A stretch of 64,000 bases of DNA, taken from positions 128,001 to 192,000 of the forward strand of contig CAVRCJ010000005.1 in NCBI GenBank assembly GCA_963719515.1. The letters run 5' to 3'. Position numbers and translations under genes: made by a program. The stretch's first letter is position 1, and the number at the start of each line of letters is the position of its first letter. Below the pieces are notes generated by a model, which saw only the letters and a list, made by a program, of their open reading frames with translations, made no database searches and was not told the DNA's origin. This document shows, in pieces, positions 1 to 61,866 of the stretch. This DNA is from an uncultured cyanobacterium (GTDB taxonomy: Bacteria; Cyanobacteriota; Cyanobacteriia; CAKZMO01).

Positions 1-621
1 ACGGGCCACCACCTGCCGCTCCCGGTTCCCCGCAACATCTTCCACAGCTACCTGCGCCGCTGGAACGACCTCTCAGGGCAGCCCCCCGTAGACCAGGGCG
101 AATTCCTAAACTGGCTCGACGACCACCTCGTCATTCAGCGTCACGGGGTGCGATCGCTCAAAGTCGCCGCAGGGAAACGAGGATCCGTCACCGGGTTCAT
201 CGGGGCCATTGAAGTCAGCCTCACCGGACCCTCCTCAACGCGCCCCGAGTTTGTGCAGCTGTTTTGCACCTTGGGTCAGTTCGCTCCCTACTGCGGCACC
301 GGCCACAAAACCCCCTTTGGCCTCGGTCAAACCCACCTCGGCTGGACCTCCCCCGACCGCACCGATGCCGCCGTGGCCGACCCCGCCACCCAAACCCCAC
401 AGCTCTTAGCCCAGCGCATCGACGATCTGACCGCCCGCTTCATGGCCCAGCGCAAGCGACAGGGCGGCGATCGCGCCCGTGTCGCTGCGGAAACTTGGGC
501 CACCTGTCTGGCACGGCGGGAGTTTGGCGAGTCCCTGATGGATATCGCTGAGGATATGGGACTGAAGCACGACACCGTAAAGAGCTACGTGAAGCGGGCG
601 CGGCAATCTTTGAGGGAGTAG
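1..621 (+). CDS. cas6: CRISPR-associated endoribonuclease Cas6, 5'-partial, with C-terminal HTH-like extension
   Basis: Frame 1 is open from base 1 (TGHHLPLPVPRNIFHSYLRRWN...). Has the Cas6 glycine-rich loop YCGTGHKTPFGLG, then ~70 aa ending GESLMDIAEDMGLKHDTVKSYVKRAR (HTH-like). Confidence 0.85.
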   Translation, partial: TGHHLPLPVPRNIFHSYLRRWNDLSGQPPVDQGEFLNWLDDHLVIQRHGVRSLKVAAGKRGSVTGFIGAIEVSLTGPSSTRPEFVQLFCTLGQFAPYCGTGHKTPFGLGQTHLGWTSPDRTDAAVADPATQTPQLLAQRIDDLTARFMAQRKRQGGDRARVAAETWATCLARREFGESLMDIAEDMGLKHDTVKSYVKRARQSLRE

Positions 622-868
622 CGATCGCTGCACGACGACGCTCTCTTCAAGCAGCAAAAGCTGCTGGGGATGATTTGCCAATATGACCCAAAGACTCAAT
701 TTTTGTACAGGTCAGGCAATATGGTGCAGTGAAGTTTGTTGCCGATATCTGCTGTGCCAGCAGTAGTTTTGGCTCATGGATGAGTAGGCCACTCCGGGCT
801 AGTTGAATGCCAAACTGCCAGTTTGAGCTAGGTTGCCAGGGTGAGGTGACCCGTGCCAGATGTTACAC

Positions 869-1317
869 GTGACATACTCCCGACGCTCATCTTTTAGATA
901 GAGCGCGGGCTTCTTGGCTCACGCACCACAATTTAATGGATGCCGCGCAAGAAGGTGTCCTGCTTCATCTGGTCCTGTCTAGTTACGCAGCAAGCCGTGC
1001 AACCCCGATTAGATCCCATCGACAGGCGATTTGTTTAATGTCCAGGCAATGACCAACCCCAGACAGTGACGAGTATTCAATTTCCAGCTACGGTTTCTAC
1101 CGTCTGCACTGTTCACCAGCCAAGGGCTGTACGTTTGTGTCACGATAGCAGGCCGCCGCCATGAAATAGTTTGAGCTTGGTTCAATTGTACCCTTTGCTC
1201 GCCTCGGCGCTGCCCTTAATTGCCGCCTTCGGCATCCAGTCAAGGGCGCACCTCGACTCGCTCGCTTACATCCCGACGCTGATGCTGCGCATACAGCGCG
1301 GGGCTTTCACGAACTAG
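869..1317 (-). mobile_element. Non-autonomous IS200/IS605 mini-element A (449 bp, no transposase or TnpB ORF)
   Basis: Subterminal hairpins CCC(C)GCGCT..AGCGTCGGG at both ends. Minus strand starts after TTAG with CTAG and ends GTCAC, as in the element at 6103-6494. Confidence 0.8.
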
Positions 1318-1494
1318 CTAAAAAACTAGGATAGACCGCAAGGCTTTGTTGGCTTGCCTCAACCACTATAGTAATAGCGCTGTACTCAGTTAACACACCG
1401 CTCTGGAACCGCTGACGATTTAGCACATTTGTGCGTAACGTGCCTGTACGCTGTCCCGTCAGCCCTCTTGCATAACCTATGGAGACGCATCCCA

Positions 1495-4387: not shown

Positions 4388-5512
4388 TCAAGCAGCGATC
4401 GCAGGCTGAGCCTGTCTGACATCGCCTAGCCCACGGGTTGACGCCCCAACCCGTTGAATGTTTATTGCAGCATTCAAGTCTCGATCGTGATGTTCGTTGC
4501 AAATAGGGCAATCCCACTGCCGTTGTTTTAGATCTAACTCCTTCAGTACGTGCCCACAACAGCTACAAGTTTTAGAGCTGGGATACCACTGGTCGATGAA
4601 TGCTACGGTCTTGCCTTTTTTCTTTGCCACCCACTGAAGGATTTCGAGAAATTCAGCTAGGGCTAGGTCCGATATCTTCCGGCCCCATAGCCGCTGCATC
4701 CCTTTCAGGTTCAGCGTCTCAAAGTAGAGCGCATCGTAGGTATCGGTTAGCCGGTGGGCAAGCTTCCAAAACCAATCTCGTCGCCTATTGGCTATGGCCT
4801 CATGGCAGCGAGCTAGATTTAGTCTTGCCCTGTGCCAGTTTGCCGACTTTTTTCGCTTGCGCGATAGGTTGCGGCTAGCTCGGCAAAGGTCTTTGAGCGA
4901 TGCTTTCAGGAATTCAGGAGACTCGATTTGAGTACCATCTGACAAAGTGAGAAACGTCTTCAGTCCAAAATCAGCACCAGCGGTTTTACCCGTCTCGATG
5001 CCTTGAACTGGTTCAGCTTCCTGGTCCACCACAACGGCTAAAAACAGCTCACCCAAAGGCGATCGCTTCACCGTGACGGTCTTAACCTTGCCCTCTATCT
5101 CCCTTGAATTCCAATACTGGTAGACCCTGCTGCCTATCTTGATACGACCACCATTGAGCAGCTTGTATCCCGCCTGTTTTAGGGTGAACGACTTGTATCG
5201 CCTTACCTTCTGAAAGCTAGGCGGCCTATAGCCTTTGCCGTGATGCTTAAAGAACAGCTGGTATGCCTTTTCAATTCGCTGGCAGATGTCCTGCACAGCC
5301 TGAGACCCCACCAACTGCCAAAACGGATTGCGCCTCCGTAGCTTGGCAATATGAGACTGAAGTTTAGAGCAATTGAGGTGTTTGCCCCACATACGGTAGT
5401 ACCGTTTGTGGAGAGCAATGCAGTGGTTCCAAATCACCCCAGCAGCATTAATAGTGCGCTTTAGGTGCCGGTTCCGCTTGTGCTCGTATATCTTAAACTT
5501 CAATGTTCTCAT
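4388..5512 (-). CDS. tnpB: RNA-guided endonuclease TnpB (intact)
   Basis: RuvC motifs GADFG, FETLN, DRDLNAAINI and zinc ribbon CSCCG...CPIC; start MRTLKFKIY. Confidence 0.93.
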   Translation of the reverse strand: MRTLKFKIYEHKRNRHLKRTINAAGVIWNHCIALHKRYYRMWGKHLNCSKLQSHIAKLRRRNPFWQLVGSQAVQDICQRIEKAYQLFFKHHGKGYRPPSFQKVRRYKSFTLKQAGYKLLNGGRIKIGSRVYQYWNSREIEGKVKTVTVKRSPLGELFLAVVVDQEAEPVQGIETGKTAGADFGLKTFLTLSDGTQIESPEFLKASLKDLCRASRNLSRKRKKSANWHRARLNLARCHEAIANRRRDWFWKLAHRLTDTYDALYFETLNLKGMQRLWGRKISDLALAEFLEILQWVAKKKGKTVAFIDQWYPSSKTCSCCGHVLKELDLKQRQWDCPICNEHHDRDLNAAINIQRVGASTRGLGDVRQAQPAIAA

Positions 5513-5555
5513 ACTGTTTATGTTAGCATAGATGCGTAGGCATTGTGTAGGCAGT

Positions 5556-5696
5556 ATGGCAAAAGGACAGCTTAATTTAAGAGTCTCTATTAAAAGATTG
5601 CAAAAGCTTAGGGCGATTGCAAAAGAGAGGGACAAGACCATGACTCAACTGGTAGAAGATTGGATAGATCGCCTACATTTAGAGAAGCCGTCCTGA
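5556..5696 (+). CDS. 46-aa ribbon-helix-helix (CopG-like) protein divergent from tnpB; not in the ORF track
   Basis: MAKGQLNLRVSIKRLQKLRAIAKERDKTMTQLVEDWIDRLHLEKPS: alternating beta strand plus two helices. Its stop lies in the IS left-end hairpin. Confidence 0.7.
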   Translation: MAKGQLNLRVSIKRLQKLRAIAKERDKTMTQLVEDWIDRLHLEKPS

Positions 5697-6102: not shown

Positions 6103-6494
6103 GTGACATCCTCCCGACGCTGACAGCAAGCTGTACAGCGCGGGCTTCCTCAGTGACTCCCAGCTATTGCCGAGACATATCCTGAGATAGGTTTATACTC
6201 CGCCTGATGCCCCACGGCAGAGTTTTGAATTTTCATCTCCGCGAGGGAGGATACGCACTATGTGTCGCAGATACATTTGCAAACTGAGGAACGGGTGACT
6301 TGCAGCTTTCGCCTACGGGCCCGTCACACTCTTTGCGGGGTGTATCACCTTGCTATCTCTATCATACCAACTGCTAGCCTCAGCGCTGAGCGCACTATCC
6401 GCTGTGCATCATTTTGCGGGCGCACTTCGGCTAGCGCGACTCTCATCCCGACGCTCACCCTGACGGGTAGAGCGCGGGGCTTCCTGTCTAGTAG
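6103..6494 (-). mobile_element. Non-autonomous IS200/IS605 mini-element B (392 bp), inserted 3' of TTAG inside mscS
   Basis: Same end hairpins as element A; precise removal restores the mscS frame. Confidence 0.88.
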
Positions 6495-7481
6495 CTAAAA
6501 CCTCAGCCAGCTGCTCCTCGGTCACCGCTCGCCAGTCCTCCGCAAGCTCATCAACGGACTGGCCATTAAACCGAGCGTCTAACTCGGTAATTGTGAGAAT
6601 ATTGACGGGTCGCGAGAGGTCATCATTGGTGACTTGAAGAATCGTCGCGCCGTTTAAAACAGAAATCGAGACCTCGGCAGAATCACTATCGGCCAGTCGC
6701 TCTACCGCACGTTTCAGATTAGCTTCAATCAGCTCTGCCCGCAGCTCAACTGGATATCGGTTCTCGTCGTACTCACCGTCGCGGGTATATACCGTAGGCG
6801 CTGCGACTTGAAATAAGTCCTGCCGCAGCAGTGGCGATCGCACTGGGGCGGTTTCAATGCTGCCTAGACGCGTGACGGTGCTGGGCACATCGTGGGGCCG
6901 TGCATCAGTAGCTCCTGGAGCGAGTTGGCCATGAGCAGGGTCCATCGCTCCAGACGTTGTCCAAAACATGAAAGCGACGAGCAGCGCGCGAAGTATAAGC
7001 TTCCGTTTAAAGTGGCGGCGAAACATAAAAAATACGGGTGAAAGTCTTTAAATAGGTCGGCACCTAAGTTGCTTCGCCCGTCACAATACCACAGGACTCA
7101 GCCGGTGACACAGTCAGTCCATCAACGCGCGCGTGAGGAAGCTTACGAAGTCGTGGTTTCAACATTGGAACAGCTGCGCCAAAGCACTGATTGCTGGCAT
7201 TACGATAGAGGCAGCTAGGTTGCTCGAAATTTCTGAAGGCGCTTCTGAGGCGATACCGGATTTTCCGGGAATGGAGGTGGACTTTGAAGTCGAATTCTCA
7301 GCCGTGGGCTTTTCAGGGCAATATGGTGATTGCCAATACCCTGCTTCAGAATGATCATCCAAAGTTCAACTTAGTGCAGTCGCTGGCGCAGCAATCCCAC
7401 CTCCGACGCGGCGATCGCCATGCTGCGACACGATGAGGCGATCGCATTTCTGCTGGCGACCTCGGCCATTCAGCCCTAACT

Positions 7482-37977: not shown

Positions 37978-38390
37978 AGAAGACGCCTTATATCCCACCG
38001 CTAAAGCGGTGGGATATAAGGCGGTGAGCGCAGCGAACAATCCCGAAACCCTCACCGTTACTGGGATTTGCTATAATAGAGATGGTCAATGACCCACCCG
38101 AGACGCAGACGCAACAGACAGCCTAACGTGACGAAATCGGCAACAAGCTGATGGCGCGGACAGCTCGGTAGACCGGGAAAAGAGGATAGGGCAACGGAGA
38201 CGACCCTAGAATCAACAATCAACATAGAATTCCTTGAATTCAACAAATAAGAACCGCAGGGCTTGCGGGGATAGTCTGTGGAGCGACCGTAAGACCGGAA
38301 AGGCTTAGGCCTCGAAGGCAGGTGCTATGAAGCAGAAAAATCTTGGAGCGATCCAAGAATCCCACGTGCTTTAGCCGTGGGAGAAGTCAA
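37978..38390 (+). mobile_element. Non-autonomous IS200/IS605 mini-element C (413 bp), related to the tnpB element at 60508-61866
   Basis: Left end AGAAGACGCC..CCCACCGCTAAAGCGGTGGGATATAAGGCGGTGAGCG after TTAT. The last ~115 nt closely match the right end of the 60508-61866 element and finish GTCAA. Confidence 0.9.
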
Positions 38391-39801: not shown

Positions 39802-42542
39802 GTGGCGTTGGGCAACTGGATGCGTCAGGCTTTTGGAGCGCTTGCAGGAAGCAATTATCGCTGGAGCCCTGAGGCAGAGGAGGTGGTGGGTGACCTGCTG
39901 CGGGCGCTGCGGCGTAAGCGCGGGTTTGGCCTATTTTTTGTGCAGTGCAGCCCTGCCCAAGGGCAGCAGGTGATGGCGGCTATTCAGGAGCGACTGCCTC
40001 AGAAGCGGCTGGCGGAGTTTGAGCTAGAGCGCGATAGCAAGACGCTCTATGGTGAGCTGCTGGAGAGCTATCGGGCGGAGCCGTTTGAGGTGGCTTGCGT
40101 GACGGGGGTAGAGCAAGCGCTGTATGACTATGAGGATACGAAGCGCATTGCGGGGTGGAGTTCGGAAGAGATATATAACTATAGCTGGAAGGGGCTGCCG
40201 CCGCTGCTAAGCCACCTTAACCGGCAGCGAGAAGCGTTTGAGGCCAATCTTCCTGTTGCATTACTTTTTTTGGTGCCGGGATTCGTAATTGACTATTTCG
40301 TTCAACGAGCACCAGATTTCTTTGATTGGCGCTCAGGTTTTTTTAGGCTATCTCCTAGAATCGGAAGATGCGGCGAAAAGCTATTTGAGGAGCTAACCAG
40401 TGAAGAATTTGAGGAATATAAAGAACTATCTTCAGAGAAACGTCTTCAAAGAATTCTACAGATCAAAGATTTATTGAAGTCTAGCGATTTAGAAAAAGAG
40501 CAGCAAGCGCAGATGCTGCGAGAGCAAGGACGCTTGTTTAGCAGTGGTGATGATTTCGAACAGTCTTTAGATTGCTACAGTCGCGCAATAAAATTTCAGC
40601 CAGATTGTCATGAAACATTTAGAAGCAAAGGAATTGTACTACGTAATCTAGAACGATACGAGGAGGCGATCGCTGCCTATGACACCGCTCTCAACATCAA
40701 GCCGGACAATCACAAGGTGCTCAACAACAAAGGAATTGCGCTATATCGTCTAGAACGATACGAGGAGGCGATCGCCGCCTATGACGCCGCCCTCATCATC
40801 AAGCCGGACAACCACTATGCTCTCAAAAGCAAAGGATTTGCGCTACGGAATCTAGAACGATACGAGGAGGCGATCGCCGCCTATGACGCCGCACTCATCA
40901 TCAAGCCGGACTTCCACGAGGCGCTCAACATCAAAGGAAATGCGCTACGGAATCTAGAACGATACGAGGAGGCGATCGCCGCCTATGACGCCGCCCTCAA
41001 CATCAAGCCGGACCTACCACGAGGCGCTCAACAACAAAGGATTTGCGCTAGATGATCTAGAACGATACGAGGAGGCGATCGCCGCCTATGACGCCGCCCT
41101 CAACATCAAGCCGGACGACCACAAGGCGCTCAACAACAAAGGAAATGCGCTAGGTAATCTAGAACGATACGAGGAGGCGATCGCCGCCTATGACGCCGCC
41201 CTCAACATCAAGCCGGACAAACACGAGGTGCTCAACAACAAAGGAATTGCGCTATATCGTCTAGAACGATACGAGGCGGCGATCGCCGCCTATGACGCCG
41301 CCCTCACCATCAAGCCGGACAACCACGATGCGCTCAACAACAAAGGAAATGCGCTAGATAATCTAGAACGATACGAGGAGGCGATCGCCGCCTATGACGC
41401 CGCCCTCAACATCAAGCCGGACTACCACGAGGCGCTCAACAACAAAGGAATTGCGCTAGGTAATCTAGAACGATACGAGGAGGCGATCGCCGCCTATGAC
41501 GCCGCCCTCAACATCAAGCCGGACAAACACGAGGTGCTCTACAACAAAGGAAATGCGCTATATCGTCTAGAACGATACGAGGAGGCGATCGCCGCCTATG
41601 ACGCCGCCCTCACCATCAACCCGGACAAACACGATGCGCTCAACAACAAAGGAAATGCGCTAGATGATCTAGAGCGATACGAGGAGGCGATCGCCGCCTA
41701 TGACGCCGCCCTCACCATCAAGCCGGACTACCACGGGGCGCTCAACAACAAAGGATTTGCGCTAGGGAATCTAAAACGATACGAGGAGGCGATCGCCGCC
41801 TATGACGCCGCCCTCAACATCAAGCCGGACTACCACGGGGCGCTCAACAACAAAGGAACTGCGCTAGGGAATCTAAAACGATACGAGGAGGCGATCGCCG
41901 CCTTTGACGCCGCCCTTAACATCAAGCCGGACCTCCACGATGCGCTCAACAACAAAGGACTTGCGCTAGCTGACCTAGAACGATACGAGGAGGCGATCGC
42001 CGCCTATGACGCTGCTCTCAACATCAAGCCGGACAAACACGGGGCGCTTAACAACAAAGGAAATGCGCTAGCTAATCTAGAACAATACGAGGCGGCGATC
42101 GCCTCCTATGACGCTGCTCTCAACATCAAGCCAGACCTCCACAAGGCGCTCAACAACAAAGGAAATGCGCATATGACCTAGAGCGATACGAGGAGGCGAT
42201 CGCCGCCTATGACGCCGCCCTCAACATCAAGCCGGACACGAGGCGCTCAACAACAAAGGAATTGCGCTAGGGAATCTAGAACGATACGAGGAGGCGATCG
42301 CCGCCTATGACGCCGCCCTCATCATCAAGCCGGACAAACACGATGTGCTCTACAACAAAGCCTGCTGCTACGGACTACAGGGTCAAGTAGACTCAGCCCT
42401 CCTCTGGCTAGAAAAAGCGATCGCCCTCGACTCTGAATATCGCACTATGGCTTCAGCTGACAGCGACTTTGACTCTATTCGAGACAACAAGCGCTTTCAG
42501 CAACTGCTCCATGCCACCCAAAGCAACGGGAGCGATCGCTGA
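39802..42542 (+). CDS. TPR-repeat protein with an N-terminal globular domain (possibly an inactive P-loop); frameshifts inside the repeat array
   Basis: LNRQRE...APDFFDWRSG domain, then ~18 TPRs and the terminal YNKACCYGLQG...DSDFDSIR cap. Confidence 0.85.
40600..42360 (+). repeat. Tandem array of ~17 near-identical 102-bp TPR-coding units
   Basis: CTAGAACGATACGAGGAGGCGATCGCCGCCTATGACGCCGCCCTC recurs about every 102 bp from 40648 to 42276. Confidence 0.95.
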
Positions 42543-49044: not shown

Positions 49045-50424
49045 GAATCTTTTGCAGTACTCCGACCATAGCTGAAAGCTTGGTTGGTGGTGTAGCGAAA
49101 CGCGAGCAAAGCGAGCAATCTACAATAGATTATAGTATATTGTAGACATACTAAACATGACGTGGGAATTTAAGCTAAAGCCGAGCGCCGAGCAGGTTGC
49201 GGAGATTGAGCATACATTGTCTGTGTGCCGCAGTGTCTGGAACTTTGCGCTACGTGAGCGCAAAGACTGGTTGGATTCCCGCAACTCACCCATCAACGCC
49301 TGCTCACTGCGAGGAGAGTACATTCTCTCAGCAGACGAACCGTTCCCTGGCTACCACGTTCAGGCAAAGCGACTTACCGCTGCCAAAAAAGAGTTTCCAC
49401 TCTTTTTGGCAGTTAACGCTCAAATGCTGCAGCAGGTGCTGAGGAAGCTGGACATTGCCTGGGAGGCGTGGCGGCTGAAGCGAGCCGGGTTGCCCCGGTT
49501 CAAGAAGTCTAGCCGGATGCGGAGTTTTGTTTTCCCGCAGATGCTCAAGAACTGCATCAGCGCTGATGGAATCAAACTGCCACAGCTGGGCTGGGTTGGA
49601 GTTCGTTGGTCTCGTCAGATACCGTAGCCTGTTCGCCGTCAAGCAAGCCCGAATTGTCCGCAAAGCGTCGGGCTACTTTGTCATGCTGTCGCTAGAGGCT
49701 GATGTAGACATCCCTGATGTTCCCTTTCACGGCCACCCGGTCGGAATCGATGTGGGCCTTGAATACTTCCTCTCGACTTCTGATGGCGAGCAGGTCAAGC
49801 GACCCCGCTTTTTCGACGAGCTGCACCGCAAGCTGAAATCGCTGCAGCGTAGACTCAAGACTAAGCGCAAGGGGAGCAACAACTGGCTGAAGCTGCAAAA
49901 GAAGATATCGAGAGTGCATCAGCGCATCGCCGACACCCGCAAGGACTGGCACTACAAGCTAGCTCATCATCTGTGTGATGGCGCAGGCGCTGTGTTTGTC
50001 GAAGACCTCGACTTCCGCATCATGGCGAAAGGGATGCTGGGCAAACACATCCTTGACGCTGGCCTGGGGCAGTTCACCAATCAGGTGTTGCCCTGGGTGT
50101 GCTGGAAGCGTGATGTCTACTACGGCAAGGTGGACCCAAAGGGCACCTCTCAGGAGTGCCCAGACTGCGGCGCTGAGGTCCGCAAAGGTCTGAGCACCCG
50201 AATATCGCACTGCCGCTCTTGCGGTTCACTCAAGCCGCGAGATGTGGCAGCGGCACAAGTGATTAGTACCCGTGGGCAACGGGGAATAGAAAATGCCTGT
50301 GGAGTCGAGGCGGCGGGGGCTGGGGTAACTCAGTCTAGCTGGCTGGCAGCGAAGCAGGAACTCTTTGGGGTAACCCAGGGAATCTCCCTGCATACCCGAT
50401 AGGGTTGCTGGGAGAGGATGTCAA
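49045..50424 (+). mobile_element. IS200/IS605 (tnpB-only) element; left boundary approximate
   Basis: Hairpin CCGACCATAGCTGAAAGCTTGGTTGG upstream of tnpB; right end ...GGGAGAGGATGTCAA. Confidence 0.75.
49157..50402 (+). CDS. tnpB: TnpB with an apparent frameshift near 49620
   Basis: WEFKLKP N-terminus; GIDVG, FVEDL, CPDC/CRSC, PRDVAAA. Confidence 0.85.
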
Positions 50425-59041: not shown

Positions 59042-60511
59042 ATGAGCGACCTTGTGTTGATGTCAGCGCATCAGCTGGCAGCTCTGATCCGCGATCGCCA
59101 AGCGTCAGCGGTGGAAGTTCTTGAGGCTTACCTCGTTCAAATCGCCGAGCGCAACCCCGCCCTCAACGCCATCTGCACCCTGGATGAAGCCGGAGCGCGG
59201 CAGCGAGCTGAGCAGGCGGACGAGGCCACCGCTCGGGGCGAAGTTTGGGGACCGCTGCACGGCGTCCCCATCACTATCAAAGATATTTTTGAAACCGCTG
59301 GTCTACGGACGACAGCGGGCTACATCCCCCTCAAAGACCATGTACCGTCTGAGGATGCCACTGCAGTAGCCCGGCTCCGGGCTGCAGGAGCTATCATCCT
59401 CGGTAAAACCAATATGGCGGAGCTGGCGGGAGACTACCAAAGCACCAACTCTCTGTTCCCTAGGGTCAACAACCCCTGGAACCTGGACTACACGGCGGGG
59501 GGAAGTTCTGGGGGCAGCGCCGCCGCCGTCGCTGCTGGCCTCTCGCCCTTAGACCTGGGCAACGACATCGCCGGTTCGGTTCGCCAACCGGCTCATTTTT
59601 GCGGCGTCTATGGCCTCAAGCCTACCGACCGCCGCGTGTCCACCGCCGGACAAATTCCAGAGGTGCCGGGAATGCCGACCTGTATCCGTCACCTCATTAC
59701 GGTCGGCTGCTTTGCGCGATCGCTCGAAGATATCCAGCTCTGCTTCTCCCTGATTGCGGGGGCAGACCGGCGTCGCGCCGATGTCCCCCCGGTGCCGCTA
59801 GACATCCCCTCTAACAGGTCGCTTCAGGAGATCAAAATCGCCTGGAGCAGCGAATGGCCTGAGGTGCCCGTCGCCCGCGACATCCTTAACGCTATGACCA
59901 CAGCGGCGGCGGCTTTAAGTGACGCTGGCGCTCAGCTTGAGGACTGGCGTCCCCAAAATTTCGACCTCTCGGCAACGCTAAACCTTTATACCAGGCTCGT
60001 GGCCTACCTGATGGTCTACGCCCAGCCGGTAAACCGCCACACCCTGCGGCGATCGCTCACTCAAATTTTTCGTACTGCAACCCAGGGAGACCGAGAGCTG
60101 CGGCAGCTGGGCAACTTTGCCGCAGTCCTGCCCGAGCTGCTGAATCCAGGACTGAAGGGATACTTTGAGGCGCTTACCGAGCGCGATCGCTTCATTACCG
60201 CAATGGAAGAGGCTCTAGACCCCTGGGACGTTTGGATTACGCCGGTTGCCGCTACGCCCGCCTTTACCCACCGCCCCGCCTGGAGCGCCATTGAAATTGA
60301 GGGACGACTATACCCGCATGTAGTTGCCAACGGTGCCTACGCGATGCCGTTTAACCTGAGCGGTCACCCGGCGGTGACGGTACCGATTGGACAGACTCCA
60401 GAGGGGTTACCCTTAGGCCTGCAGATCGTGGGCAAGCGCTGGCGAGAGCTGGAGCTGTTGGCGATCGCGAAGCATGTGCAGCGCGCCTGCCGCAAAACGC
60501 CATACACTTGA
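59042..60511 (+). CDS. Amidase signature family protein; stop codon lies in the adjacent IS end
   Basis: GPLHGVPITIKD, GGSSGGSAAA, GNDIAGSVRQPA. Confidence 0.92.
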   Translation: MSDLVLMSAHQLAALIRDRQASAVEVLEAYLVQIAERNPALNAICTLDEAGARQRAEQADEATARGEVWGPLHGVPITIKDIFETAGLRTTAGYIPLKDHVPSEDATAVARLRAAGAIILGKTNMAELAGDYQSTNSLFPRVNNPWNLDYTAGGSSGGSAAAVAAGLSPLDLGNDIAGSVRQPAHFCGVYGLKPTDRRVSTAGQIPEVPGMPTCIRHLITVGCFARSLEDIQLCFSLIAGADRRRADVPPVPLDIPSNRSLQEIKIAWSSEWPEVPVARDILNAMTTAAAALSDAGAQLEDWRPQNFDLSATLNLYTRLVAYLMVYAQPVNRHTLRRSLTQIFRTATQGDRELRQLGNFAAVLPELLNPGLKGYFEALTERDRFITAMEEALDPWDVWITPVAATPAFTHRPAWSAIEIEGRLYPHVVANGAYAMPFNLSGHPAVTVPIGQTPEGLPLGLQIVGKRWRELELLAIAKHVQRACRKTPYT

Positions 60512-61866
60512 CCACTCCCACGGCTAAAGCGCGTGGGATTCTTGGATTGCTCCAAGACTTTTCTGCTTCGTAGCACCTGCCTTCCGAGATTTGCTCTCTA
60601 TGCGCGAAGCGCAGGCTTGCCAACGGGTCTTACAGTCGCTCCACAGACTGACACCGCTAGACCAGCGGCCAATACGTTTACAGCGGCGTTTACGTCTCTA
60701 TCGTGCTTAACGTCGCACTCAGGGCACTGCCACTGTCGAATGTTCGACGGCAGCTTATCTACGACGTGGCCGCAGCTGCCACAGCGCTTAGAGCTAGGGA
60801 ACCAGCGGTCTATCTTGACGAGCTCTCGCCCGTACCATTCGCACTTGTAGGTAAGCTGCCTCACCAGTTCTCCCCAGCTCGCATCACTGATGGCCGCGCC
60901 AAAGCGTGATTATGGACCATGTTCACCGCTGCTAAGTCCTCAACGGCGATCGCTTGGTTTTCGCGCACCAGCCGGGTTGTCAGCTTGTGTTCGCGAAGCG
61001 TCCCGAAGGGAAGCAGGTCTTTGCGGGCATTGGCTATCTCGGCGTGGACCCTGGCCACCCTGAGCCGCGCTTTGTATCGGTTGTTCGAGCCCTTTTGCTT
61101 GCGGCTGAGCGCCTTTTGAGCTTTTCGTAGCTTGCGGTACTTAGCCCTGAAGCCCTTGGGGTTGGCAATCTTCTCGCCCGTGCTCAGCGTGACCAGACTG
61201 GTGATGCCCAAGTCCAGGCCAACTTTGTTAGGAGATACCGGCAGTGGCTCAATGTCCACCTCCACCAACAGCGACACAAACCACCGACCTGCAGGCGTCA
61301 GCTTGACCGTGATAGTCGATGGTGCGGCAGCTTTCGGAAGCGCCCTAGACCATCGAATGGGCAGCGCCTCAGAGCACTTAGCCAAGTAGACTTGCCCCTC
61401 TCTAAACTTGAACGCCGCCTTGGTAAACTCCGCGCTACCGCCGTTGCGCTTCTTCTTGAAGTTGGGATACTCAGCCCGACCCGCAAAGAAGTTAGTGAAG
61501 GCGGTTTGCAGATGCCTCAGCCCTTGCTGAAGGGGAACCGAGCTAACCTCAGTAAGAAATTCAAGGCCCTCCTCTTTTTTCCACTGGGTCAGCATCGACG
61601 AGGTTTGAGCGTAGCCGACGCGCTCTTGCTTCTGGTACCAGGCCTCAGTCCTTGCCGCCAAAGCGCGGTTGTAGACCAGGCGAGTACACCCCATTGTCCG
61701 GCGCAAGAGGTTGTTCTTGCCCCACAGTAGGATAGAAGCGATAGCGGTAAGCCCTTTGAACCATGCTTACAGCTTAGCGCTCGCTGTGTAAGATGTGGAT
61801 GTGTTCGCTAACGCTCACCGTCTTAATATCCCACCCCTAAAGCGGATGGGTTTTACGGCGACTTCT
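60508..61866 (-). mobile_element. IS200/IS605 (tnpB-only) element
   Basis: Left end AGAAGTCGCCGTAAAACCCATCCGCTTTAGGGGTGGG; right end CCCACGCGCTTTAGCCGTGGGAGTGGTCAA. Confidence 0.9.
60598..61764 (-). pseudogene. tnpB: TnpB with apparent frameshifts near 61720 and 60895 and an in-frame 21-nt insertion
   Basis: MVQRAYRYRFYPT start; GLDLG, AVEDL, CGSCG/CPEC, HDRDVNAA across three ORF pieces. Confidence 0.85.

Follow-up and report, generated by a model that had tools for sequence, protein, structure and literature searches.

The element A locus

The window, i.e. the whole stretch of 64,000 nucleotides analysed here, comprises a gene-less mini-transposon of the IS605 family with a length of 449 bp, referred to as element A (869-1317, minus strand; Table 1). 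A preliminary description had recognized a 449-bp element with both end hairpins, a TTAG motif and no transposase ORF, which was confirmed. BLAST searches of the element's own genome (G000; 5.28 Mb, 21 contigs) revealed 18 full-length copies with 98.4-100% identity to the copy of the window. The copies are located at unrelated sites with unrelated flanks and without target duplication; TTAG precedes 17 of the 18 copies and TCAC likewise terminates 17. No transposase or TnpB coding was found in element A by six-frame translation, the ORF list and tnpB-5' profiles, and the longest start-initiated frame amounts to at most 58 codons (six-frame translation, ORF list).

The start of the left end (CTAGTTCGTGAAAGC, hairpin arms) is common to element A and resident tnpB-bearing elements, e.g. 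at C10:892.6k. According to the guide rule of IS608, AAGC fits TTAG and GAAG fits TCAC. A covariation of guide and target is visible when AAGC/TTAG of element A is compared to AAGT/TTAA of sister families, which comprise GAAT/TCAA as right-end pair. The guide of a TnpB RNA comes from the flanking DNA (Karvelis 2021, PMC8612924), in this case from the would-be guide given in Table 1.

No empty site of element A was found among four congeners. A long frame is clearly split by the element in at most one of the 18 copies (87+141 codons). In three of the 18 copies, a long frame (179-467 codons) ends with TAG immediately before the element, which can be explained by the stop codon contained in TTAG. 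At a distance of 248 nt from the window copy, a Cas6 gene with a C-terminal helix-turn-helix is located (1-621, plus strand; PF10040, weak PF08281). Since element A is mobile with 18 sites, this adjacency is incidental. Tandem coding repeats of 102 nt were observed at 40507-42360 of the window.

Candidate partners are encoded in the same genome. For TnpA (PF01797), 14 matches were obtained in G000, of which 10 were strong, and the genome includes a tnpA-tnpB element with TTAG in front of its left end. Six of the seven tnpB frames examined in the closest clade of G000 were free of stops and comprised all three RuvC motifs (Pfam OrfB_IS605); one examined tnpB element has the left-end start of element A together with TTAG. 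Element A is likely mobilized by TnpA encoded at other loci of G000, and its putative RNA is likely served in trans by TnpB of sister elements.

Table 1. Features of element A and related elements. Positions refer to the window unless a contig is given.
Feature	Position	Strand	Remarks
TTAG target motif (TAM)	1318..1321	-	outside element A; 17/18 copies
IS605 left end of element A	1272..1317	-	start as in tnpB-bearing elements of G000
Left-end DNA guide AAGC	1306-1303	-	part of left end
Left-end subterminal hairpin	1302-1272	-	part of left end
Palindromic block upstream of promoter, GTGCGCCC...GGGCAGCGC	about 1207..1251	-
-10 box TACAAT	1185..1190	-	at position of leaderless tnpB promoter; clade comparison
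Whole 5' segment (about 115-120 nt)	1065..1184	-	from -10 box to omega scaffold; contains module
Conserved 5' RNA module	1097..1148	-	three helices, predicted fold
Module outer helix	1148-1143 with 1102-1097	-
Module inner helix with bulged A	1142-1137 with 1109-1105	-
Module internal loop AAACGUA/GUGAACA (7x7)	1136-1130/1116-1110	-	near-invariant
Module capping hairpin	1129-1117	-
TnpB omega-RNA scaffold, including right end	869..1064	-	covariance model and HMM from tnpB-linked ends
IS605 right end of element A	869..913	-	resembles ends of resident tnpB-bearing elements
Right-end DNA guide GAAG	913-910	-	part of right end
Right-end hairpin	909-879	-	part of right end
Cleavage motif TCAC	872-869	-	terminal bases of element A
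Flanking DNA, would-be guide of ~16 nt	853..868	-	differs at each of the 18 copies
Element A copies behind TAG stop	G000:C11:89689, C3:80849, C3:735154
tnpB with small overlapping divergent ORF	4388-5696		ORF without Pfam match
Element B, gene-less IS605 mini	6103-6518	-	53 copies in G000; L129 in G002
Mini-element C	38243-38390
tnpB element	49148-50424
Further tnpB copy	60508-61764

Promoter region and transcription

The tnpB genes of the clade (loci L071-L128) look leaderless, the -10 box and the start codon being 6 nt apart. A TAnnnT box at this distance was counted by eye in 35 of 40 tnpB genes of the clade, including one gene with a start shifted by a codon. The TACAAT of element A, reported before and indeed present at 1190-1185, occupies the same place after the left end as the tnpB box, and accordingly a start site at ~1178 is proposed. 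A consensus promoter scan did not list this site, which can be explained by the absence of a -35 box. Element A has no -35 box and is devoid of the TG extension of its relatives.

The palindromic block upstream of the promoter, which had been described as shared with element B, was recovered there and also in other gene-less minis, so that it is common to A, B, D, V1, V3 and V4. Among 401 genomes, the pattern of the block yielded 25 matches in G000 and one in G002, whereby it catches only some of the element B copies. In an Arc preprint (10.64898/2026.09.24.754181), comparable stretches between genes are shown to act as genuine promoters of other IS605 elements.

Seven metatranscriptomes contain small shares of element A words. 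Contigs of relatives with 88-95% likeness cover the element including the promoter in runs X1-X4 and X6, and such contigs cannot give strand, start or level. Since they also span the promoter, DNA or read-through is indistinguishable from a transcript. The locus was not covered in runs X8-X10. The RNA of element A is a presumed transcript.

A TnpB omega-RNA scaffold in the 3' part

The ~310 nt downstream of the promoter had been regarded as unlike tnpB. This does not hold for the 3' part of ~190 nt, which, judged from profile comparisons of its sequence, is a TnpB omega-RNA scaffold homologous to the 3' end of tnpB. The tnpB 3' ends for the models were collected from G000 and other cyanobacteria. 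A covariance model trained on 29 tnpB-linked ends, six of them from G000, covers 869-1057 with 75.2 bits (E=5.9e-18). With the right-end hairpin trimmed, an omega HMM trained on 34 tnpB ends, all from other genomes, matched element A at 1037-958 (E=4e-6 within the window), and genome-wide it matched all 18 copies at E<0.01. Two tnpB elements of other genomes, L102 and L105, share the element A-specific letters GCCTGT.GATGGGATCT...CTAGACAAGACC...GAAGCAG. Since the pairwise alignment of the scaffold with single resident tnpB ends was uninformative (z<=1.6 for 23 representatives), profiles were needed to detect the homology.

In an alignment of 12 gene-less elements, which was fitted to the tnpB-trained model, 93.8% of the cells were paired and 28 of 37 pairs were changed on both sides. 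This degree of pairing was reached by none of 500 shuffles, and slid controls showed 35-52%. The omega fold thus appears to be kept without coding constraint, the scaffold helices being under apparent purifying selection. The last stem of the scaffold is lengthened in element A, with 36 nt compared to 12 nt in the model.

In omega-RNAs, an internal loop forms a pseudoknot with the terminal bases, as in the structures of ISDra2. For element A only 3 bp (UGA/UCA) are possible, and the respective strand is variable in minis as well as in tnpB-linked ends. The canonical GUGA strand was missing in all 10 complete module-bearing elements (10/10, by eye).

A conserved RNA module in the 5' segment

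The 5' segment contains a module with the core G[A]CAC-AAACGUA-hairpin-GUGAACA-GUGC, in which the hairpin comprises 10-24 nt. Based on this variation in the length of the capping hairpin, the spacing of the module is not codon-like. A comparison of element A with its relative in G225 showed 34 of 36 identical positions in the core, compared to 14 of 32 in the linker after it.

The structure of 14 pairs was evaluated with 9 aligned sequences, which represent about 6 lineages and from which the structure itself was derived. It showed 90.3% pairing with 9 pairs changed on both sides, while 0 of 500 shuffles reached this value and slid controls yielded 20-46%. With its own partner, the outer stem surpassed every other permutation by length (1 of 720) and the majority by energy (12 of 720). 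In two held-out sequences, G103 and a third copy of G629, the three helices are all preserved with different letters. The helices tolerate G-U type pairs. The letters of the loop differ in V1, V3, G103 and one metatranscriptome relative.

In the predicted ensemble of 1178-853, the capping hairpin has a probability of about 0.8 and the outer helix of about 0.6. Neither the 5' segment alone (z=-0.5) nor the whole predicted transcript (z=-1.8) was unusually stable. A conserved pairing between module and scaffold was not found, 103 of 120 permutations being as good. The 5' arm of the module can pair with the first hairpin of the scaffold in the A/V1/V3/G225 lineage (-14 to -17.5 kcal/mol); confined to this one lineage, it was rejected as a general feature. 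For a possible pairing of the loop GUGA with the terminal UCAC, the sole variant available was G103, a single copy with an uncertain end. A helix between CTTGGCT (1118-1124) and AGCCAAG (913-919), proposed earlier to close a domain of ~200 nt, was retained as a complementarity but not as a helix: the predicted pair probability was 0.000 at 7 of 7 positions in the ensemble of 1178-853, and in 9 out of 9 other elements no more than 3-5 Watson-Crick pairs are possible between the equivalent segments.

Several origins and classes were considered for the 5' segment and for the element. A decayed second copy of the omega-RNA was dismissed, as neither the omega HMM nor the covariance model gave a second match in the segment. 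Codons resembling those of tnpB had suggested an origin from this gene; nhmmer with three training sets gave no significant support, and an anchored/local profile found only a match of 17 nt at the start. Comparison of element A with Rfam, already envisaged in the preliminary description, gave nothing at gathering level and nothing noteworthy at E<=10, which is consistent with an uncatalogued module. For 18 module loci, only weak RAGATH-18 scores on the scaffold part were obtained (E about 0.5), and the G103 element had no match. An IStron was rejected, with no group I match in Rfam and with element A ending in C, not G. The same applies to a catalogued self-cleaving ribozyme (no Rfam model match on element A or the module loci), to a resemblance to the hatchet ribozyme (no matches at E<=10 in the genome) or to domain I of group II introns (no model support), and to a HEARO/IscB omega-RNA (no Rfam match, no ORF). 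Altogether, the module is, as far as can be read from the alignments and models, a conserved RNA that is predicted to fold and not a detectable relic of tnpB.

Distribution of the module

A first module model (R2), seeded from the G000 relatives V1, V3 and the truncated V4, matched 2 of 100 other genomes (G221 and G065). An exact pattern of the module had matches in 3 of 401 genomes, with G629 and G524 as new ones, and none in the control. A further model (R3) matched 6 of 150 genomes and added G225, G103, the third G629 copy and a weak match in G102 (L194; E=0.004, no scaffold), which was left out of the counts. The module is therewith present in 12 gene-less elements from 7 genomes and 6 cyanobacterial families, V4 being truncated and the G221 copies lying at contig ends, and 11 of the 12 elements comprise the omega scaffold. 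In all cases it is located just downstream of the -10 box. The module is restricted to gene-less elements: a relaxed motif gave 20 matches in G000, all of them in minis and none in tnpB loci, and a TnpB match by tblastn was absent at all module loci of the other genomes. Outside IS605 minis it was not found in the genomes searched.

The metagenome and genome collections were scanned with a motif preceding the best one, so that the range of the module is under-sampled; the metagenomes yielded one match and the genomes 12 short, non-cyanobacterial ones, all attributable to chance. Scans of viral collections gave 0, 1 and 7 matches, which were due to chance only; one of the viral matches, L179, reached 20 bits but was pattern-selected and has no scaffold. 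Plasmid scans revealed one end match of 32 nt and no module.

Some of the individual loci showed further peculiarities. L143 (G221) and L191 (G225) are almost the same element in two genera, suggesting a recent horizontal transfer or to the binning of repeats in fragmented genomes. In the single copy of G103 (L193:1350-1940, minus strand), ~290 extra nt, apparently structured and without Rfam match, lie between promoter and module. A short divergent ORF adjoins the left end in L198 (about 1264-1800, G629) and L194 (G102) and by eye looks like an Arc/ribbon-helix-helix gene. L198 also stacks a second module before the scaffold.

Other gene-less elements with different 5' segments

Gene-less families with the same layout and other 5' segments occur in G000 with 53 (B), 6 (V2/V5), 5 (C) and 2 (D) copies. 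Element B comprises the promoter block of element A, but another scaffold subtype and another 5' segment. A stretch of 30 nt at the start of this segment recurs in the V2/V5 segments with 80% (small set, E=0.005). The V2/V5 minis L047 and L048 (G000) as well as L163 and L164 (G166) combine the scaffold of element A with a different 5' domain. This domain is conserved in another family, and AAACGUA is found there in a loop closed by UCACC/GGUGA. Since model R2 matched none of the C, B, D and V2 segments, the module of element A is considered separate.

Of 20 scaffold matches retrieved from five complete genomes, 13 lacked a tnpB within the extracted stretch. These include V2-, C- and D-like segments, one tnpB relic (L169) and two short minis without any 5' segment (L162 and L178 of G019). 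As such short minis exist, elements do not need a module to spread. One and the same module occurs in combination with varying left ends and scaffold subtypes, and the varied 5' segments at the same place indicate a slot that is filled by several exchangeable RNAs. Another recurring 5' module, UAUGGGG(U)U...GUAAAA, was observed in L054, L055, L171, L173, L176 and L198. L173, L176 and L198 contain a CYUUGAMAACU stretch, which may resemble the boxA of cyanobacterial rrn operons.

Relation to known systems

Element A resembles the PATEs (Dyall-Smith 2011, PMC3119063) in its subterminal palindromes, the missing terminal inverted repeats and target duplication, a length too short for a transposase, the homogeneous expansion to multiple copies and a predicted omega-RNA without tnpB. 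According to Meers 2023 (10.1101/2023.03.14.532601), PATEs "often encode omega-RNAs", which are served in trans, and a review (PMC13565253) does not mention them in its accessible text. In contrast to the descriptions available in Dyall-Smith 2011 and Meers 2023, which include no such part, element A adds a structured 5' module. The omega-RNA or reRNA of ISDra2 and AmaTnpB likewise comprises a scaffold from the tnpB 3' end plus the right end, with a guide from flanking DNA and a TAM equal to the TnpA target, as far as these systems are covered by the texts consulted; compared to them, element A has no tnpB in cis, and its predicted precursor of ~310 nt is non-coding. For AmaTnpB, Nety 2023 (PMC10278001) reports that 5' mRNA sequence can inhibit cleavage in cis, and also that purified TnpB trims a separately added RNA at its 5' end.

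Accordingly, what is new here is the 5' segment of ~115 nt with its three-helix module, while the omega scaffold is already known. The open literature searched, without supplements, yielded no description of gene-less IS605 elements with an additional 5' domain; the supplements of Meers 2023 (PATE sequences) and the TnpB surveys of Altae-Tran may already hold such elements.

Interpretation of element A

The preliminary description had interpreted the locus as a mobile RNA-expression cassette with either an enlarged omega-RNA or an unrelated non-coding cargo of ~310 nt. The position of the promoter, the covarying scaffold and the 5' module are consistent with a putative expression cassette for an enlarged omega-RNA. 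The unrelated cargo was abandoned, as no more than ~115 nt lack an explanation and the remainder can be aligned with the 3' end of tnpB, an outcome that the preliminary description itself had named as refuting. We favour the reading of element A as a PATE-type element that is moved by TnpA and served in trans by TnpB, and assign it a probability of about 0.55. TnpA from elsewhere would peel the element out and paste it at TTAG, and the old tnpB promoter would make module, scaffold and flanking guide as one RNA of ~310 nt plus guide. TnpB of a sister element would trim and load this RNA and cut the emptied site, the repair of which would restore element A, in line with the peel-paste and cut-and-restore model (Karvelis 2021, PMC8612924; Meers 2023, 10.1101/2023.03.14.532601). 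Since the module occurs only where tnpB is missing, we interpret it as acting in cis in place of the ORF. By binding a protein or protecting the RNA, it would replace the effect of tnpB translation on stability, on the hand-over to TnpB or on the setting of the 5' processing site; a role in the survival or loading of the RNA is likely. Points against the favoured reading are the missing -35 box and TG extension, the ordinary stability of segment and transcript, the absent GUGA strand, the short minis that spread with no 5' segment, the lack of a conserved module-scaffold pairing and the empty site not found among the four congeners.

The module could instead belong to an undescribed class of small catalytic or self-processing RNAs and free the 5' end of the omega-RNA without the RNase step of TnpB. 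Its bulge and symmetric internal loop hold ~20 near-invariant nucleotides between helices that covary freely, which corresponds to a pattern seen in small ribozymes, and the module sits between start site and scaffold only where tnpB is absent in cis. However, no Rfam ribozyme model matched (hatchet with 0 at E<=10), the loop letters vary in the four relatives named above and TnpB itself can trim supplied RNA (Nety 2023, PMC10278001), and we consider a catalytic module rather unlikely. Regulation is a near rival to the stand-in function, since both the trimming of the 5' end and an inhibition by 5' sequence are reported by Nety 2023. The RNA of element A would then bind but damp TnpB as a regulator or decoy, either by a module that blocks cutting or by titration through the 18 copies. 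The inhibition of AmaTnpB in cis, the pairing of the 5' arm with the first scaffold hairpin in A/V1/V3/G225 (-14 to -17.5 kcal/mol) and the loss of the GUGA strand argue for such damping, whereas the pairing is not kept across families and the apparent purifying selection on the scaffold helices is directly explained by a guide role, which makes damping unlikely. An independent cargo riding the tnpB promoter, e.g. a ligand aptamer, an antitoxin-like or a host-useful RNA, would agree with the joining of one module to different left ends and scaffold subtypes, with the unrelated segments of B, C, D and V2 in the same slot and with the two modules stacked in L198. It is nevertheless quite improbable, as the module was never met outside IS605 minis in the genomes searched and neither an ORF nor a conserved neighbour belongs to it.

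IS605 elements move as single-stranded circles of the same strand as that of element A (Meers 2023, 10.1101/2023.03.14.532601), and the conserved fold could therefore act on the excised single-stranded DNA, as an aid for TnpA or a priming signal for the second strand. The acceptance of G-U type pairs, the constant position just downstream of the -10 box and the movement of full elements without a module argue against this, so that a role in DNA is very unlikely. That element A is a plain decayed deletion derivative with a functionless relic of tnpB as 5' segment has hardly any probability left. A weak match to tnpB starts covers the 17 nt that follow the -10 box (5.8 bits, 0 of 40 shuffles), and a mini of the true relic type exists elsewhere (L169), but HMM and profile found no further tnpB-5' homology, and covariation together with frame-breaking hairpin lengths extends across 6 families. 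The relic reading is already largely refuted by the covariation of the module and by the held-out homologs. More far-reaching than the stand-in for tnpB would be an exchange of tnpB for exchangeable and stackable modules in gene-less IS605 elements. The module of element A would then belong to a new functional RNA class that captures the nuclease of other transposons, as a self-processing ribozyme or an aptamer recruiting or regulating TnpB. We regard this as possible, though doubtful.

PATEs with omega-RNAs have been asserted in print and hardly dissected. Element A offers a clean test case with 18 recent copies, candidate partners for TnpA and TnpB in the same genome and a module of ~50 nt whose fold is defined and whose invariant bases are known. 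Should the module prove catalytic, it would represent a new class of small ribozymes. Element A makes it testable how an untranslated omega-RNA is made, protected and loaded with TnpB in trans, and the answer bears on the expression of TnpB guides for editing.
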